DNA from: an uncultured Neisseria sp.
GTDB lineage: Bacteria > Pseudomonadota > Gammaproteobacteria > Burkholderiales > UBA11063
NCBI GenBank assembly: GCA_964386295.1
Contig: CAYLRR010000001.1
Location: 178,116 to 242,115, forward strand
Direction of reading: 5' to 3'
DNA: 64,000 nucleotides
Positions 23,928-37,514 of the stretch are shown piece by piece. The first letter of the stretch is position 1. Each line of letters begins with the position of its first letter. The notes beneath the pieces are model-generated. The model did no database searches, was not told the DNA's origin, and was given only the letters and a program-made list of their open reading frames with translations. The position numbers were made by a program, and so were the translations under genes.

Positions 23928-24245
23928 TTAATTAATTAATAACATTTCACTAAATTTGATATTAAAAAATTGACTTAGTTCTGAAAGATCACACTCTTTA
24001 ATTGGTGTATTACGTTTTCTAATAATCTCAACAGCTGATTCTTCGCCATATACCTCCATAGTATTCTCTTCCAATTTTTTTTCATTTACGCTAAGAGATT
24101 TAGACTTAGAATCTAACCCGGCTTTTTTTGTAGCGGGTCTTTTTTTTAGAGCTCGAATTTTTTCTCGGCTAAATAAATAACCCTCGCCATTTAGACTATG
24201 AGTTTCTCTAAAAAATGCATTACTACCATTTTTATGGTTATTCAT
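23928..24245 (-). CDS. Hypothetical small basic protein, paralog of 33976..34299
   Basis: Shares GYxxxxxKxRALK and KRNTPxxxCDxxELxQF motifs with the other copy. Confidence 0.75.
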   Translation of the reverse strand: MNNHKNGSNAFFRETHSLNGEGYLFSREKIRALKKRPATKKAGLDSKSKSLSVNEKKLEENTMEVYGEESAVEIIRKRNTPIKECDLSELSQFFNIKFSEMLLIN

Positions 24246-25478: not shown

Positions 25479-25685
25479 TATCTGATGTTGTTACGCACTA
25501 AATCAAATTTTAGTATTTTGCCCAAAATAGGGAAAGTACGTAACATCTCTTAATATCATAAGTGACATAAAGCAAACACAACTGCTCATTAAAATAATCA
25601 ATTAGAAAAAGAGTAGGCTCATTGAAGAAACCTTATCTAGTATTAGCGTTTGCTATCCTACAGGATAAACTTTCTTGAAAAAAAT

Positions 25686-25714
25686 TTGCTAAAAACCTTT
25701 CAGGGTAATACAAT
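25686..25714 (+). promoter_or_regulatory. Sigma70 promoter of tRNA-Val
   Basis: TTGCTA-17 nt-TACAAT followed by a C-rich discriminator. Confidence 0.65.
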
Positions 25715-25747
25715 TATCCCCTCAGCAATTATAAACCATAAATCTAG

Positions 25748-25822
25748 GGGTTGTTAGCTCAGTGGTAGAGCGTTACGTTGACATCGTAAAGGTCGTTGGT
25801 TCGATACCGACACAACCCACCA
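25748..25822 (+). tRNA. tRNA-Val(GAC)
   Basis: Acceptor GGGTTGT/ACAACCC, anticodon arm TTACG-TTGACAT-CGTAA, GGTTCGA T-loop, encoded CCA. Confidence 0.97.
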
Positions 25823-25944
25823 GTATATTTATCTCACCTCCTTATTTTCCAATATTTTTAGCCTAAATAATAACAATTGTAATGGCTTTATTAAATTAAC
25901 CATTTGCTTAATCTTGCTTAAAATTACGATTAATTTACTCTAAA

Positions 25945-25978
25945 ATTGACCTAAGATTGACCTAAGATTGACCTAAGA
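25945..25978. repeat. Three perfect tandem copies of 11-bp TTGACCTAAGA
   Basis: Copies at 25946, 25957 and 25968. Confidence 0.95.
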
Positions 25979-26101
25979 CAATTTTAGTATCTTTTTCTTT
26001 TCATCGGACTTAATAAAGCGAGCATGGTTTTTATAAATCATTTCTATAGTTTCATGACCTACAATTTTGTACAACCCCCACTTCCATGCGTATTGTTTAG
26101 T
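25973..26101 (-). pseudogene. Tyrosine integrase C-terminal relic pointing at the tRNA-Val 3' end
   Basis: Translates ...VGHETIEMIYKNHARFIKSDEKKKILKLS*, matching MGHINTEMVIRNYGEFI of the relic at 36.7-37.1 kb; catalytic Tyr position is CAT (His). Confidence 0.5.
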
Positions 26102-26229
26102 CTACTTCAGTTTATGTTGGCGACCTGGATAATTCAAGTTATACAAATTACCAATCTTGTTTTAACAGAATTTTCTATCCTCTGAAATTGAAGGTATTAA
26201 TCATGATCAATTTTAAATACAATATTGGT

Positions 26230-26328
26230 ATTGCATCATCCTAATATGCATAAAGGTACAAATATTACTTATCCTTTGCTTGCATTTGTACCTTGGCAAG
26301 AAGATATAGCATTACTATATCTTTTTGC
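26230..26328 (+). ncRNA. Candidate sRNA, sibling A (three hairpins, the last a terminator)
   Basis: TACAAT -10 box 6 nt upstream; stems TGCAT/ATGCA, AAGGTACAAAT/ATTTGTACCTT, AAGATATAG/CTATATCTT plus T-run. Confidence 0.6.
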
Positions 26329-26518
26329 TTATTAATACCTTGAAAAAAAGACCAACAGCCGGAATTTAACAATTACTGTAATTCCGGCTACCTATTTAAC
26401 CCATTAAGCATACATCAAATAACTCACCGATTCAATTCACTAACATAAATATAATAATTTTTGCAATCTACAGAAAATGAAGATACCAATAACAGAATTA
26501 ATTGGGTAGAATTACGCA

Positions 26519-26621
26519 ATTGCATTCCTGAAATTTATGCAATGAGGTATATACGTTACGCATTGTCTTGATTACCTGTACCTCGACCAAAAAGGATATA
26601 GTTAAAGCTATATCCTTTTTT
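26519..26621 (+). ncRNA. Candidate sRNA, sibling B
   Basis: TAGAAT -10 box 6 nt upstream; stems ATTGCAT/ATGCAAT, GAGGTA/TACCTC, AAAAAGGATATAG/CTATATCCTTTTT. Confidence 0.6.
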
Positions 26622-27330
26622 ATTTATATCTTAATATTCATTAAGAAAATTCTTTATTTCTAAATCTTCAGTCAATTATTTACAAAAATAACCTTATGCC
26701 AATAGTAATTGTGGTCTTTATACTCTATCTTATTCCAGAGAAGAAATAGCTTGCCTTATACCTTTCTAGCGGACACTCAGATATTTTAGGCTTCATTAGC
26801 TGGAAAATTAATACTATTTTGTACATGATATCAATAGTACTACAAGTTTCTAAATTAATTAAGTTTGTTACGCACTTTCACAAACTTTTGGCAAAATAAT
26901 AAGATTTATTAAAATGGTTAATTAATTTATAACTAGTTATATAGTATATTTGATTTTGTTTACGAAATTAGCGTTATTTGTTAATTTGTTTGAGTGATGC
27001 GAGTTTATCAACAAATAGCAAACGAGTAAGACAAAATCTTAGATGCGGAAGATTTGAGCTATAACTCAATTAACTTTTAGATAAATCTGATACACTGCTT
27101 TAAATTTTATTAGCGTGCGTAACATCACTTAATTAAAATAAATTTCGGAAGGAGGTGATTTCACATTTTATTATTATATGTTAAGAGTAGTTCTGCACTG
27201 GCAATAATTTACTGTATAATATTTAGTTTACATATGTATTGCTTATTAAATACCAAATACTTTTATAATACTAATTATTGATTTATTACTAGGTTGTGAT
27301 ACACTTTTTGCCACTATATGAAAGTTATAT

Positions 27331-28722
27331 ATGTTATTTAACAGTTACTTGTTTATATTCATTTTTTTGCCAATTTCATTTTTCTTATATTTTGTTGTAG
27401 CTAAATTAAATCTTCGTAGACTCCCAATTTTGAATTTGGCCATAATGAGCCTATTATTTTATTCTTTGTGGGAGCCTAAATACACAATTTTAATTTTGAT
27501 TTCGATTGTTACTAATTTTCTTTGCGGATACTTTATCCAAAACTCTCGTGCCAAAAAAGCAATTTTAAATAGCGGCCTATTGTTTAATTTATCTTTATTA
27601 GGGTATTATAAGTATACCAATTTTTTTATTGAAAACCTAGACCGTATAACCGGAGCGAAGTATCAACTATCGGCCATTGCCCTCCCATTAGGTATTAGTT
27701 TTTTTACTTTTACCCAGATTGCTTATTTAGTAGATTGCTATAAAGCTAAAGTAAAAGAAACTAATTTTTTGAATTATTTCTTATTTGTAACTTTTTTCCC
27801 TCATCTGATAGCCGGACCAATTATTCATCATGCCGAAATGATGCCCCAGTTTCAAAAAGCAGAGTTTAAATTAAATTATAACAATATTTATAAAGGCTTA
27901 TCCTTATTTGCTATCGGTTTATTTAAAAAAACCATTGTTGCAGACTTATTTGCGTTTAATGTTGCCAAACTATTTAATTTAGCTACAGTTACTCATTTAT
28001 CATTTTGGGAGAGTTGGTCTGCCGCCCTATCTTATTCAGTACAGCTATATTTTGATTTTAGCGGCTATACAGATATGGCAATTGGTATTGCCTTACTCTT
28101 TAATATCATTTTACCGATAAACTTTAATTCACCTTACAAGGCTGATTCAATTTCCGATTTCTGGCAACGTTGGCATATAACCTTAAGCAGATTTTTAAGA
28201 GAATATATTTATATACCATTAGGTGGGAACAGGAAGGGCTATATCCGCCGAGAAATAAACGTATTGTTGGTATTTTTAATTGGCGGATTCTGGCATGGTG
28301 CGGGATGGACCTTTATTGTATGGGGTATTTTGCATTCTATAGGTTACATAATTTCTCGAGTATGGAATAGCATTACTAATTATTTTAAATTTTTATCGTT
28401 GCCCAAATTTACCTATGTCCTAATTACATTTATCTATGTAACATTCTGCTGGGTTTATTTTAATGCTTCAACTGTTACATCAGCAAATTCAATGATTAAG
28501 TCAATGCTCTCACTTGACTTCCACTCTAAAATGAATTACTATATCTTTCCTGCAATAGTTGTAATAGCTGCAACAATGTTATTACCAAATTCCAACCAAA
28601 TTGTTGAATACACAACAACTCGGAGCAAAAATTTTGCAATTGCTTATGCCATAATTTTCTGGATTGGGCTTATTGCTATCAACCTTATACCTAACACGCC
28701 ATTTATTTATTTTCAATTCTAG
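27331..28722 (+). CDS. MBOAT O-acyltransferase, AlgI/PatA family
   Basis: MLFNSYLF, LPLGISFFTF, YFDFSGYTDMAIG, FWQRWHITLS, GFWHGAGW, C-terminal FIYFQF. Confidence 0.95.
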   Translation: MLFNSYLFIFIFLPISFFLYFVVAKLNLRRLPILNLAIMSLLFYSLWEPKYTILILISIVTNFLCGYFIQNSRAKKAILNSGLLFNLSLLGYYKYTNFFIENLDRITGAKYQLSAIALPLGISFFTFTQIAYLVDCYKAKVKETNFLNYFLFVTFFPHLIAGPIIHHAEMMPQFQKAEFKLNYNNIYKGLSLFAIGLFKKTIVADLFAFNVAKLFNLATVTHLSFWESWSAALSYSVQLYFDFSGYTDMAIGIALLFNIILPINFNSPYKADSISDFWQRWHITLSRFLREYIYIPLGGNRKGYIRREINVLLVFLIGGFWHGAGWTFIVWGILHSIGYIISRVWNSITNYFKFLSLPKFTYVLITFIYVTFCWVYFNASTVTSANSMIKSMLSLDFHSKMNYYIFPAIVVIAATMLLPNSNQIVEYTTTRSKNFAIAYAIIFWIGLIAINLIPNTPFIYFQF

Positions 28723-28728
28723 TAAAAT

Positions 28729-29706
28729 ATGAAAACCAAAACCTTTTTTCTAATCTCCACTTTGATTATCCTAATTGGAATTACTGTTATTCTTAATCAA
28801 TTTGCAATGTCAAAGACTATCATACCTTTTAACTTGGATAGGCCATTAGCTTCATTATACAGGTTGGAGCATACAGTTAATCCAGTCGTATTTCTTGGTG
28901 ATTCTCGGACAAAATATCAGGTTGATACAGAATATTTAAATAATACCCATGCGTTAAGTGCAAATGTAACTAATGGTGGAATTAATGGGTTCTATTACCC
29001 TTACCAGATAGCTGCTTTTAAGGTAGCAGCTAATAATCCAAATATCCACAAAATCTATTTTTCTATGCCCATTCGGGATATTTTTGGCAAAGTCCCATTG
29101 AACCCGGGTAATTTTGGAAACTTTATCAGCCCCGGATTATTGCTGCCATTATTGATGATGCCGCAAGTCGGATTAAATTTAAAAGGGCAAATGGTCAGCG
29201 CAGCCGTAAATAATATAATCGATCTGCATTATATCTTATATTATTTGCAAACTACTTTAATGCCAAACGACAAATTTAGTTCAAGTAGCCAATACTGCCA
29301 ACAACAATCAGCTTCATTATTTCAAAAAGTATATGTTTGTAAAAACGGAGATGGTTATATAATTTCTAATTCTGCTCCTAAAAGAAAGTCAATCCGTAAC
29401 GTAGTAGTTAATATAGATAATGTAACGAATGGGTTTTTATATACTTTTATGAACATGAAGCAAATGACTTCTGCTACACATAAAGATTTATACCTGGTCT
29501 TGCTTCCAGAATATGGTGTGAAATATCAAATAGATATAAAGCAACTTGAAGCAAAATTAGGGGTTACGGTCATAGATATGTCACATACTTTTAAAAATGA
29601 AAGCGACATCAAATACTGGGTTATCGATGAGGGGCACTTAAATCAGCAAGGTCGAGAGATCTATACCAAATTACTGATAAATAAAATAGTGGACTTAAAA
29701 AACTAA
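28729..29706 (+). CDS. SGNH-fold periplasmic acyltransferase partner (AlgJ/PatB/DltD-like)
   Basis: N-terminal TM, LGDSR block I, DEGHLN (DxxH) block; 6 nt after the MBOAT gene. Confidence 0.75.
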   Translation: MKTKTFFLISTLIILIGITVILNQFAMSKTIIPFNLDRPLASLYRLEHTVNPVVFLGDSRTKYQVDTEYLNNTHALSANVTNGGINGFYYPYQIAAFKVAANNPNIHKIYFSMPIRDIFGKVPLNPGNFGNFISPGLLLPLLMMPQVGLNLKGQMVSAAVNNIIDLHYILYYLQTTLMPNDKFSSSSQYCQQQSASLFQKVYVCKNGDGYIISNSAPKRKSIRNVVVNIDNVTNGFLYTFMNMKQMTSATHKDLYLVLLPEYGVKYQIDIKQLEAKLGVTVIDMSHTFKNESDIKYWVIDEGHLNQQGREIYTKLLINKIVDLKN

Positions 29707-33975: not shown

Positions 33976-34299
33976 ATGAATAAGAAGTTGCTAGATCCGG
34001 ATGGGGGCTATTTTATGACAACAGCCAAACTCAGAGCTCTCAAAAATAAGGTCAAGGTAAAGAAAATCCTCCCTATAAACAAGTTGGGAGTTATAGCTGA
34101 TATTTTTGGAAGTCAAAAATCCCGGACAGGATTAAAGCTAGAAGGAGATATAATTGCTCCTATGAATTACGAAGATGAGGATGATGAGGCAACAATTAAA
34201 ATAAAGAAAAGGAATACGCCACTGCGCATTTGCGATAACGCTGAACTTGATCAATTCTATGCAATTGGATTCAAGGATCTGTTACCCATTACCATCTAG
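33976..34299 (+). CDS. Hypothetical small protein, paralog of 23928..24245
   Basis: GGYFMTTAKLRALK and KKRNTPLRICDNAELDQFY motifs. Confidence 0.75.
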   Translation: MNKKLLDPDGGYFMTTAKLRALKNKVKVKKILPINKLGVIADIFGSQKSRTGLKLEGDIIAPMNYEDEDDEATIKIKKRNTPLRICDNAELDQFYAIGFKDLLPITI

Positions 34300-34425: not shown

Positions 34426-34677
34426 ATGTACAAGAATCAAAAAACCCCAAACTCTAGATTGTATGTCGGTGAATTGGACCACAAAGTAACTGTTGAAGTA
34501 CTAAAGGAACTATTTAGCAGATACGGAACAGTATTATCAACAACTTTAAGTAAATCCCAGTCTCCTGATCTCAATTTTGGGTTTATAAGTATGTCAAGCC
34601 TTTATGAAGCTAGAGCGTGCGTTGAGAACTTAAATAATTTTATTGTTAATGATAACCCTATAATAGTTAGGTTTTGA
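34426..34677 (+). CDS. RRM (RNA recognition motif) protein, divergent
   Basis: RNP2 LYVGEL, RNP1 NFGFISM. Confidence 0.85.
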   Translation: MYKNQKTPNSRLYVGELDHKVTVEVLKELFSRYGTVLSTTLSKSQSPDLNFGFISMSSLYEARACVENLNNFIVNDNPIIVRF

Positions 34678-34854: not shown

Positions 34855-35160
34855 ATGGAACTCATAATGAAAAAGTCCCTATTCGTTGCAGGTCTTGACT
34901 ATGCAATTACTAACGAAAATTTAAAAGAAATCTTTAGCGCTTATGGCATAGTAGAAACTGCTAAAGTAGTTACAGACAAATTCTCAGGCCAAAGCCGTGG
35001 CTTTGGTTTTGTAGATATGTCAACTCAAGAAGAAGCGCAAAATTGCATTAACAGCTTAAATAACTCGACAGTAAACAGCAGACAAATTGTTGTTAAGTTT
35101 AAAGAAGACAAGCCATCAGAAAACCGAAACCAGAGTAGAGGTTATAACTCTCGCTGGTAA
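34855..35160 (+). CDS. RRM protein, canonical bacterial Rbp type
   Basis: RNP2 LFVAGL, RNP1 SRGFGFVDM, short R/N/S-rich tail; likely start 34867. Confidence 0.93.
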   Translation: MELIMKKSLFVAGLDYAITNENLKEIFSAYGIVETAKVVTDKFSGQSRGFGFVDMSTQEEAQNCINSLNNSTVNSRQIVVKFKEDKPSENRNQSRGYNSRW

Positions 35161-36706: not shown

Positions 36707-37088
36707 AAAAATGCTGCAATAAATTTAAAATTTTCCCATATCCACATAATAACTCAGTATCAAATAACAAGTAATTTAAATGATTTTGTCTTTTTAAATC
36801 CAGATAATATGAAATGCTGGCAAGACGATCAAATTGATTAGACGAAGGTGGAGTAAGTTGTTTGATGATAAAGAAGTAAGATACAGATACCCCTACCAGA
36901 TGCGACATACTTACGCTTCTACCTTATTAAGTAATGGGGAAAATATAGCCTGGATAGCAACACAGATGGGGCATATCAATACTGAAATGGTAATCAGGAA
37001 TTACGGAGAATTTATTCCTAATAGTAACTTGCTTGGCGGCTATACACTAAAGGGCAAAATAGATTTAGTTACCAAATTGTCACCTTGA
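36707..37088 (+). pseudogene. 5'-truncated, frameshifted phage-type tyrosine integrase
   Basis: NDFVFLNPDNMKCWQDDQ / +1 shift near 36833 / IRRRWSKLF...RYRYPYQMRHTYASTLLSNGENIAWIATQMGHINTEMVIRNY. Confidence 0.9.
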
Positions 37089-37130: not shown

Positions 37131-37514
37131 TGGTGGAGATGGCGGGAATTGAACCCGCGTCCGAAAGTCCTCTACAACGAGTACTACATACTTAGTTAAG
37201 TCTTTTGGCATTCGCCAAAATTACGCCGGCTTAACAGGCTTAATTTCAGCTAACCGCTTAGTTTCAACCTAAATCTGCGGTAAATTTAGATCTAAGCCTA
37301 TTTGATTGGCGTTACAGCTTAACCAATAGGCAAGTTAAGTGTAACGGAGCAGAACTTAAGCTGCTGCAGCGGCCATAACAGAATCGTTAGATGCTGCTAG
37401 GTCGAATTTTTTAAATGTGTTTGCATTTACTTTGTTTACAGTGTTTTACGTGGGCTGTGATCACGGTATGCACTCTGATTGCTTTGTCACCCCCGTCGAA
37501 GCCATGTCATCCCC
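37131..37514 (-). ncRNA. ssrA: tmRNA
   Basis: 5' GGGGATGACATGGCTTCGAC, 3' GGTTCAATTCCCGCCATCTCCACCA, G3-U pair in the acceptor stem, tag ORF 37424-37356. Confidence 0.97.

Follow-up and report, generated by a model that had tools for sequence, protein, structure and literature searches.

Two paralogous structured elements, each of about 100 nt, stand in tandem on the plus strand of an uncultured bacterium catalogued as Neisseria sp. (Burkholderiales, UBA11063), within a stretch of 64,000 nucleotides of contig CAYLRR010000001.1 (assembly GCA_964386295.1, positions 178,116 to 242,115) that is referred to below as the window. They occupy an ORF-poor gap (25823-27330), 1.5 kb without credible open reading frames (ORFs), with a tRNA-Val(GAC) gene on its left and an MBOAT gene (27331-28722) on its right, and they recur in a relative that is about 10% diverged. 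The two units are probably functional RNA genes, acting either as base-pairing siblings or as protein-binding RNAs, and we lean towards the first of these, a pair of base-pairing sibling small RNAs (sRNAs) of the kind proposed by the first-pass annotation of this DNA. In that reading each unit would be an sRNA gene transcribed from the plus strand with its own control region and intrinsic terminator; a longer primary transcript, or read-through from tRNA-Val followed by processing, would also be possible. The features concerned are as follows (SL1 to SL3, stem-loops 1 to 3).

25748-25822, plus strand: tRNA-Val(GAC), the conserved left neighbour of the pair
26146-26229, plus strand: conserved upstream region of unit 1, with the block CTGAAATTGAAGGTATTAAT at 26182-26201 and the -10-like TACAAT at 26218-26223, without a -35 element
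26230-26332, plus strand: unit 1, a putative sRNA of ~100 nt
26232-26250: SL1 of unit 1, loop CAUCCUAAU
26253-26294: SL2 of unit 1, with a 20-nt loop that holds a second UCCU
26295-26329: SL3 of unit 1, the terminator hairpin, followed by UUAUU
26357-26389: G+C-rich hairpin AGCCGGAATT..AATTCCGGCT in the fast-evolving inter-unit spacer, with an 8-bp core that is the same in the relative and surroundings that are ~15% diverged
26470-26518, plus strand: proximal upstream region of unit 2, with the block CAGAAAATGAAGATACCAAT at 26471-26490 and the -10-like TAGAAT at 26507-26512
26519-26624, plus strand: unit 2, a putative sRNA of ~105 nt, in which all changes in the relative lie in loops or at helix ends
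26519-26543: SL1 of unit 2, loop UCCUGAAAUUU
26544-26584: SL2 of unit 2, with a 24-nt loop
26589-26620: SL3 of unit 2, the terminator, followed by a U-run and listed as a terminator-like site in the scan

Fold, paralogy and strand of the units

The first-pass annotation had described two ~100-nt units with three stems each, 289 bp apart, and its coordinates and motifs are correct. The sequence ATTGCAT begins at 26230 and again at 26519, 289 nt further on, and in both units it is preceded, at a distance of exactly 6 nt, by the -10-like box, as had been claimed. Stem 1 (UGCAU/AUGCA) is alike in the two units. Stem 2 reads AAGGUAC../..GUACCUU in unit 1 and GAGGUAUA/UGUACCUC in unit 2, with the common form (A/G)AGGUA../..UACCU(U/C), and stem 3 (..GAUAUAG/CUAUAUC..) is in both cases an A+T-rich hairpin that runs into a series of T residues. 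The terminator scan picked up this hairpin in unit 2 alone, that of unit 1 being its A+T-rich equivalent. The linker between SL1 and SL2 measures 1-2 nt in both units, while loop lengths differ between unit 1 and unit 2, with 9 versus 11 nt in SL1 and 20 versus 24 nt in SL2. Folded on its own, each unit forms the three hairpins, with energies of -31.4 kcal/mol (unit 1) and -31.0 kcal/mol (unit 2) and z-scores of -5.43 and -5.70, respectively; none of 200 shuffles gave an equal value.

By sequence comparison the units are clearly paralogous. A local alignment of 26129-26341 with 26419-26632 scores 88, against 39.8 +/- 5.9 for shuffled sequences, and the best-kept part is the RNA bodies, with 77 identities over 95 aligned positions (z 10.7). 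Over the 100 nt upstream of the units the similarity is weak (z 3.5), and pairwise comparison of the farther flanks revealed no similarity. The pattern TTGCAT..ATGCANNNAGGTA..TGTACCT occurs twice in the window and not once in 100 shuffles. The distance from the upstream block to the -10-like box is identical in the two copies. For the 42 nt that align without gaps up to this box the first-pass annotation had counted 24 identities; the count is 23/42, a similarity that is nevertheless far above chance (P(>=24) = 3e-4). The UCCU that it had pointed out in both first loops is present, at aligned positions.

Three features favour an RNA read from the plus strand. The G-U wobbles in SL2 of unit 2, in SL3 of unit 1 and in a change found in the relative would become A-C mismatches on the minus strand, the U-runs trail SL3 on the plus strand, and the plus strand folds better than the minus strand, for which the energies are -29.2 kcal/mol (unit 1) and -26.0 kcal/mol (unit 2). 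The same features bear on the possibility that the units act as DNA, namely as duplicated palindromic protein-binding sites (operators, or recombination or partition sites) combined with ordinary terminators beside tRNA-Val. Stems 1 and 2 are indeed near-perfect DNA palindromes of invariant sequence, they adjoin a tRNA gene used for integration, with an integrase relic and three 11-nt repeats nearby, and the units lack a -35 element and have no RNA seen from them. However, the spacing of the half-sites differs between the units by 2 and ~4 bp, and differs again through a 1-nt insertion in loop 2 of the relative; hairpins can accommodate such variation, dimeric DNA-binding sites cannot, and this argues for RNA rather than a DNA site. 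The wobbles are strand-specific, each unit ends in a hairpin and a T-run, and the relative keeps the pair without the integrase relic. DNA-level elements are thus an improbable explanation.

A coding function for the units was considered as well. According to the ORF list and a reading of the sequence, no ORF is common in register to the two units on either strand, as the first-pass annotation had stated. Unit 1 taken alone does contain an ORF for a small hydrophobic peptide of 29 aa (ATG at 26246 to TAA at 26335, MHKGTNITYPLLAFVPWQEDIALLYLFAY), which might make it a peptide gene or a dual-function RNA, and two of the three substitutions that the relative has in this ORF are synonymous, the third being conservative (E to K). 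This proportion is expected by chance in about 16% of cases by our estimate, whereas the ORF lacks a Shine-Dalgarno (SD) sequence, its ATG is sequestered within stem 1, translation at the equivalent place of unit 2 would stop after two codons, and a 1-nt deletion at 26331 in the relative removes the stop codon and alters the C-terminus. A peptide gene is therefore hardly credible.

No known RNA family accounts for the pair, in agreement with its description as previously unannotated. In a search of the whole window against Rfam 15 at the gathering threshold only tRNA and transfer-messenger RNA (tmRNA) pass, and a permissive search of 25600-27400 yielded no family, with nothing but a chance-level plastid match (E 4.4) on the terminator of unit 2. 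The first-pass annotation had also named a dispersed repeat resembling a miniature inverted-repeat transposable element (MITE) as an alternative. The units, however, have a flat single-copy depth of 15x in their own metagenome, a measure that copies less than 80% alike elsewhere in the genome would escape, whereas a MITE located 240 nt downstream reaches 180-1300x in the same metagenome and recurs on 14 or more contigs whose depth matches that of the genome. The phage and plasmid collections gave no meaningful match to the units, an exact-pattern scan of viral contigs gave none, and the same scan of metagenome contigs gave one chance match in eukaryote-like DNA without a terminator. Their single-copy status in the host's metagenome and the lack of matches in the phage, plasmid and viral collections show that the units do not represent a dispersed repeat. 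Origin from a decayed integrase gene was rejected, as only the last ~22 integrase residues (25997-26062) are recognisable and nothing beyond them, and the tRNA 3' end has no attR copy elsewhere in the window.

Conservation of the pair in a diverged relative

The relative is represented by a 1623-nt contig from an estuary metagenome (X26), found among runs picked by words shared with the neighbouring genes, and by a contig from an independent freshwater study (X27) that spans 26424-26537 and has 13 differences from the window, 12 of which it shares with the estuary contig. The latter aligns to 26146-26625, with 46 substitutions and 5 indels, and to 27129-27500. The pair is present on this contig in unchanged order, directly after tRNA-Val and upstream of the MBOAT operon. 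The 3' end of tRNA-Val (25822) is joined to position 26146 by ~105 nt of unrelated sequence, 26626-26773 is skipped in favour of a stretch of similar length (~148 nt) that is more than 20% diverged, and 26855-27128 is missing altogether. Alignable similarity stops at 26625, exactly past the second terminator. This conservation in a second genome lifts the pair above mere structural coincidence. Within the aligned block the substitutions are distributed as follows.

26181-26229: proximal upstream region of unit 1, 5 substitutions in 49 nt
26230-26332: unit 1 RNA, 4 substitutions in 103 nt
26333-26418: spacer, 13 substitutions in 86 nt and 3 indels
26419-26469: distal upstream region of unit 2, 13 substitutions in 51 nt
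26470-26518: proximal upstream region of unit 2, 3 substitutions in 49 nt
26519-26624: unit 2 RNA, 7 substitutions in 106 nt and one 1-nt insertion (loop 2)

The RNA bodies together have 11 changes in 209 nt (5.3%), compared with 26 in 137 nt (19%) in the spacer and the distal upstream region of unit 2 (odds ratio 0.24, Fisher p = 1.2e-4). Upstream of unit 1, the full region 26146-26229 has 6 substitutions in 84 nt, just one of them in the distal 35 nt. The flanking coding DNA is 8-12% diverged, and the lower value of the bodies does not differ from it significantly (p = 0.15). Six of the 11 body changes fall in loops (26243, 26532, 26555 and 26569-26571), three affect a pair at the outer end or the top of a helix (26263, 26543 and 26577), and the remaining two, in the unit 1 terminator (26299 A>G and 26300 G>A), exchange A-U and G-U pairs with pairing kept. 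All internal pairs of the three helices stay intact, and the units of the relative fold into the same three hairpins. The sole loop motif kept in all four sequences is UCCU, which is invariant. In the upstream regions, the blocks at 26182-26202 and 26470-26494 are unchanged, the -10-like box of unit 1 (TACAAT) takes the consensus form TATAAT in the relative, and that of unit 2 is unchanged. In this one diverged lineage, two RNA genes and the regions that control them thus look as if they were under purifying selection, as would be expected of functional sibling sRNA genes.

These data bear on the possibility that the pair is a relic without function, left by a decayed mobile element as a terminator-rich scrap that was duplicated locally not long ago, and that its conservation merely reflects the closeness of the two genomes. 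The region would suit such an origin, being a junkyard in which tandem 11-mers and a MITE are found together with an integrase fragment and an MBOAT operon of apparently horizontal origin, and the pair is known from two genomes only. However, substitutions across a single aligned block are 3.6-fold scarcer in the units than in the spacer (p = 1.2e-4), the coding neighbours have also changed more, though not significantly so, and the changes in the units avoid internal base pairs. Moreover, the paralogs are old, with ~20% divergence in the aligned bodies and far more in the loops, and have retained all three helices in both copies, while the relative has the pair without the mobile parts (integrase relic and MITE). 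We consequently give the relic explanation little credence.

An inverted repeat of 14 nt (26188-26201 / 26331-26344) was examined as a closing helix of unit 1 or as the ends of a MITE and was discarded, the 3' arm having 4 changes in the relative and the 5' arm none. As the 3' arm is not maintained, the 5' arm is conserved as a part of the upstream block and not as a pairing partner. The hairpin in the spacer (26357-26389) could be an extra or bidirectional terminator; transcription of the minus strand could end there because a run of A7 precedes the hairpin on the plus strand.

Expression, mode of action and comparison with known systems

In the proposed mechanism, the invariant UCCU in the apical loop of SL1 would seed pairing with the AGGA core of SD sequences and so block ribosome binding, the large and divergent loop of SL2 would give each sibling a separate target range, and SL3 and the U-tail would terminate transcription and might in addition bind a chaperone. 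A regulator would bind the conserved block at -49 to -28. AGGA is the commonest SD core in the window; it occurs in 16 out of 48 start regions, whereas the figure for random 17-mers is 3.5%.

Several results weigh against this picture and against the sibling-sRNA reading in general. No -35 element is recognisable at either unit, and the promoter scan lists neither. Covariation among the four sequences is not significant: a single compensatory change, from A-U to G-C, affects the base of SL2, and 77 of 500 shuffles reach the same value. The stems are conserved in sequence and the loops diverge, the reverse of what is found in many seed-driven sRNAs. The duplex energies of the loops with 47 start regions of the window are no better than those with intragenic sites, and the longest complement to the start regions is not significant. 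The pair has been found in only one diverged relative, and a search with a covariance model of the units, covering the 64-kb window and ~220 kb of sequence from more distant relatives, brought up no additional copies.

Transcript evidence is likewise missing. No RNA runs indexed for the units were found. Four metatranscriptomes contain the exact tmRNA of the host (depth 23-113), and one of them an exact 335-nt piece of the mRNA for the second of two RRM-domain proteins described below; in all four the depth on the units is zero, and the exact tRNA-Val is missing as well. This negative is uninformative for the units because tRNA-Val, which is surely expressed, is also absent, indicating that such libraries do not retain RNAs of ~75-105 nt. 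Four riverine metatranscriptomes with more distant relatives of the host contained nothing on the units. Of the sibling pair put forward by the first-pass annotation, therefore, the paralogous, structured and non-dispersed elements are borne out, to which their conservation in the relative can be added, while their transcription finds no support in the RNA runs.

The conserved stems and the lack of a target signal would be compatible with another RNA-level function, in which the units would bind a protein and not an mRNA, as a decoy or sponge or as part of a ribonucleoprotein, with the protein reading the UUGCAU/AUGCAA and AGGUA/UACCU stems. The invariant positions across the four sequences are mostly in stems and the loops vary save for UCCU, no target signal appeared in the window, and the two RRM proteins, one of which is expressed in a metatranscriptome, are encoded 8 kb away. 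On the other hand, the units are without a repeated motif of the CsrB/RsmZ type (GGA in many loops), each stem is present in just two copies, low divergence alone could keep the stems invariant, and no protein partner is indicated. This role is unlikely, if somewhat less so than the DNA-level and relic explanations.

Returning to base pairing, if the units are RNAs then action in trans by means of a UCCU seed on AGGA is a serious possibility that falls a little short of an even chance, and the specific anti-SD mechanism is doubtful. The earlier proposal of translational repression in trans is accordingly plausible at most, since target prediction in the window is without signal despite the UCCU/AGGA correspondence. 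The best lead concerns glycine cleavage. Loop 1 of unit 1 (AUCAUCCUAA) and the start region of gcvP (UUAGGAUGAU, 60321-60330, minus strand) are perfectly complementary over 10 nt, but perfect complements of at least 10 nt to one start region or another arise in 41% of dinucleotide shuffles, so that the match can be taken as a lead only. The gene is part of a gcvT-gcvH-gcvP operon (57499-61857, minus strand). No glycine riboswitch was found upstream of this gcvT, even at permissive Rfam thresholds, in which it differs from gcvT of Neisseria gonorrhoeae, for which a tandem riboswitch has reportedly been described. The sibling sRNAs of Neisseria repress genes of the TCA cycle, the methylcitrate pathway and glycine cleavage by occupying the ribosome-binding sites of these genes. 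Repression by them extends to gcvT, gcvH and gcvP (PMC13104608).

These Neisseria RNAs, NmsRA and NmsRB (also RcoF1/2 and NgncR_162/163), are encoded in tandem between NMB1649 and lrp, are 70-78% identical, have been shown experimentally and are each predicted to form three stem-loops, with UC-rich anti-SD regions (PMC5362039, PMC9973317). Their seeds UCUCCUCUAUUUCUCCU, i.e. UCUCCUCU and UUUCUCCU, lie in the single-stranded SL1-SL2 linker and the loop of SL2 (PMC5362039, Fig. S1). The pair described here resembles them in comprising two homologous tandem intergenic genes of ~90-105 nt with three predicted stem-loops, the third a terminator, in a betaproteobacterium, and in exposing UC-rich sequence complementary to SD sites in both members. 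However, the Neisseria seeds have no match in the window with up to 3 mismatches. Here the linker is reduced to 1-2 nt and the invariant UCCU is in the SL1 loop, the genomic context in both genomes is tRNA-Val and the MBOAT operon in place of NMB1649 and lrp, and the RNAs are known from sequence alone. The parallel with NmsR-A/B drawn by the first-pass annotation consequently holds for layout and taxonomic neighbourhood and fails for seed sequence, seed position and genomic context. Because seeds and context differ, the pair, which was compared by means of 28-nt segments of NmsRA and NmsRB, is filed as one that may work like NmsR and not as a member of that family.

Outside Neisseria, Listeria monocytogenes has the multicopy, partly tandem sRNAs LhrC1-5, Rli22 and Rli33-1, of ~100 nt, which cover the ribosome-binding site (RBS) with UC-rich motifs in hairpin loops. 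They belong to a Firmicute and have no sequence relation to the pair, and the LhrC motif is UCCC, with three repeats per RNA. LhrC has been cited as the closest mode of action (PMC5362039, PMC9973317). The 'double-hairpin' sRNAs of Burkholderia are betaproteobacterial sRNAs homologous to one another, and their CU-rich unpaired stretches are complementary to the RBS (PMC5688073). Those are dispersed over the genome and have two hairpins, in contrast to the tandem arrangement and three hairpins of the pair; no sequence match between them and the pair was found, and the units match no Rfam family. PrrF1/2 of Pseudomonas, OmrA/B of enterobacteria and AbcR1/2 of alpha-proteobacteria are tandem duplicates, each copy having its own promoter and terminator, that regulate by base pairing in a partly redundant manner. 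In these systems the conserved part is a single-stranded seed, whereas in the present units the stems are most conserved, and the units have no Rfam match to any of them. AbcR is mentioned in PMC9973317.

It is plausible that the pair constitutes a new family of a known kind, sibling anti-SD sRNAs being well established. A fuller picture, a sibling-sRNA family in a deep, low-G+C, uncultured branch near Neisseriales that arose independently for a job like that of NmsR/NgncR, repressing metabolic mRNAs, possibly gcvP, by covering AGGA with a seed in the SL1 loop, under an activator acting at -49 to -28, is unlikely to be correct in full. If real, the pair would be an sRNA family not described before, from a lineage for which metagenomes are the sole source, and a second, apparently independent case of a tandem three-hairpin sibling pair in betaproteobacteria, which would bear on the origin and divergence of such pairs; the understanding of riboregulation itself would not be changed by it. 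The case also illustrates that raw public metagenome contigs can supply evidence of sRNA conservation when no related genome is on record.

Host and genomic neighbourhood

The host appears to be a low-G+C, Neisseriales-like uncultured betaproteobacterium. Homologues of its DnaB that are 86-92% identical occur in metagenome-assembled genomes labelled Neisseriales, Neisseriaceae or Burkholderiales bacterium, the best named relatives of its RlmD are from Aquaspirillum, Crenobacter and Chromobacterium (~51%), the G+C content is ~31-40%, and the genome is present in freshwater and wastewater metagenomes. A scan of a genome collection with the neighbouring hydrolase returned one non-syntenic contig only. 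The gene order around RlmD, DnaB and MBOAT is not common to relatives at the distance of protein homologues, and protein-anchored synteny therefore yielded no comparative data.

Between tRNA-Val and the upstream region of unit 1, the minus strand encodes the C-terminal relic of a tyrosine integrase (..VGHETIEMIYKNHARF.., ~25997-26062), and right past its stop there are three tandem 11-nt repeats TGACCTAAGAT (25947-25979). The segment 25823-26145 resembles what is left of an element that had integrated at tRNA-Val, and this whole segment is replaced by the ~105 nt in the relative. The adjacency of the pair to an integrase relic, noted in the first-pass annotation, is correct, but the relic is incidental, given that the relative has the pair at tRNA-Val without it. 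Since the relative lacks the relic, the three 11-nt repeats and the repeat element downstream and yet has the pair, all three are specific to the genome of the window.

The repeat element is a MITE-like insertion of 267 bp (26863-27129) with terminal inverted repeats TGTTACGCAC / GTGCGTAACA, flanked by the 8-bp direct repeat TTAATTAA at 26855-26862 and 27130-27137. Dozens of copies, 80-90% alike, exist in the same genome, where the summed depth rises to ~1300x versus 15x and the assembly breaks. A shorter variant exists, the relative has an empty site, and low-level matches occur in two metatranscriptomes.

To the right of the pair, the MBOAT acyltransferase and its 325-aa partner (27331-29706) lack close relatives; the best matches are of ~55% identity, the named ones being mostly from Paenibacillaceae and Campylobacterota, and the module is also present in the relative. 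This distribution suggests a horizontally acquired module for polysaccharide O-acylation.

A second integrase fragment (36746-37088), 57-63% identical to the intact integrases of relatives, adjoins the gene for tmRNA (37131-37514, minus strand). Where relatives have an 89% identical DnaB, this same tmRNA site holds intact integrases with different islands behind them (L015-L017, 13086-14271) or lacks an island (L014).

The two RRM-domain proteins are encoded at 34426-34677 and 34855-35160 (Pfam RRM_1, E 3.5e-12 and 2.1e-21, respectively) and are possible candidate partners for small RNAs in the host lineage. Finally, two paralogous proteins of ~105 aa without a Pfam family are encoded 10 kb apart, at 23928-24245 (minus strand) and 33976-34299 (plus strand), flanking the tRNA-Val locus; they have in common the motifs ..KLRALKN/K.. 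and ..IKKRNTP(I/L)..C...

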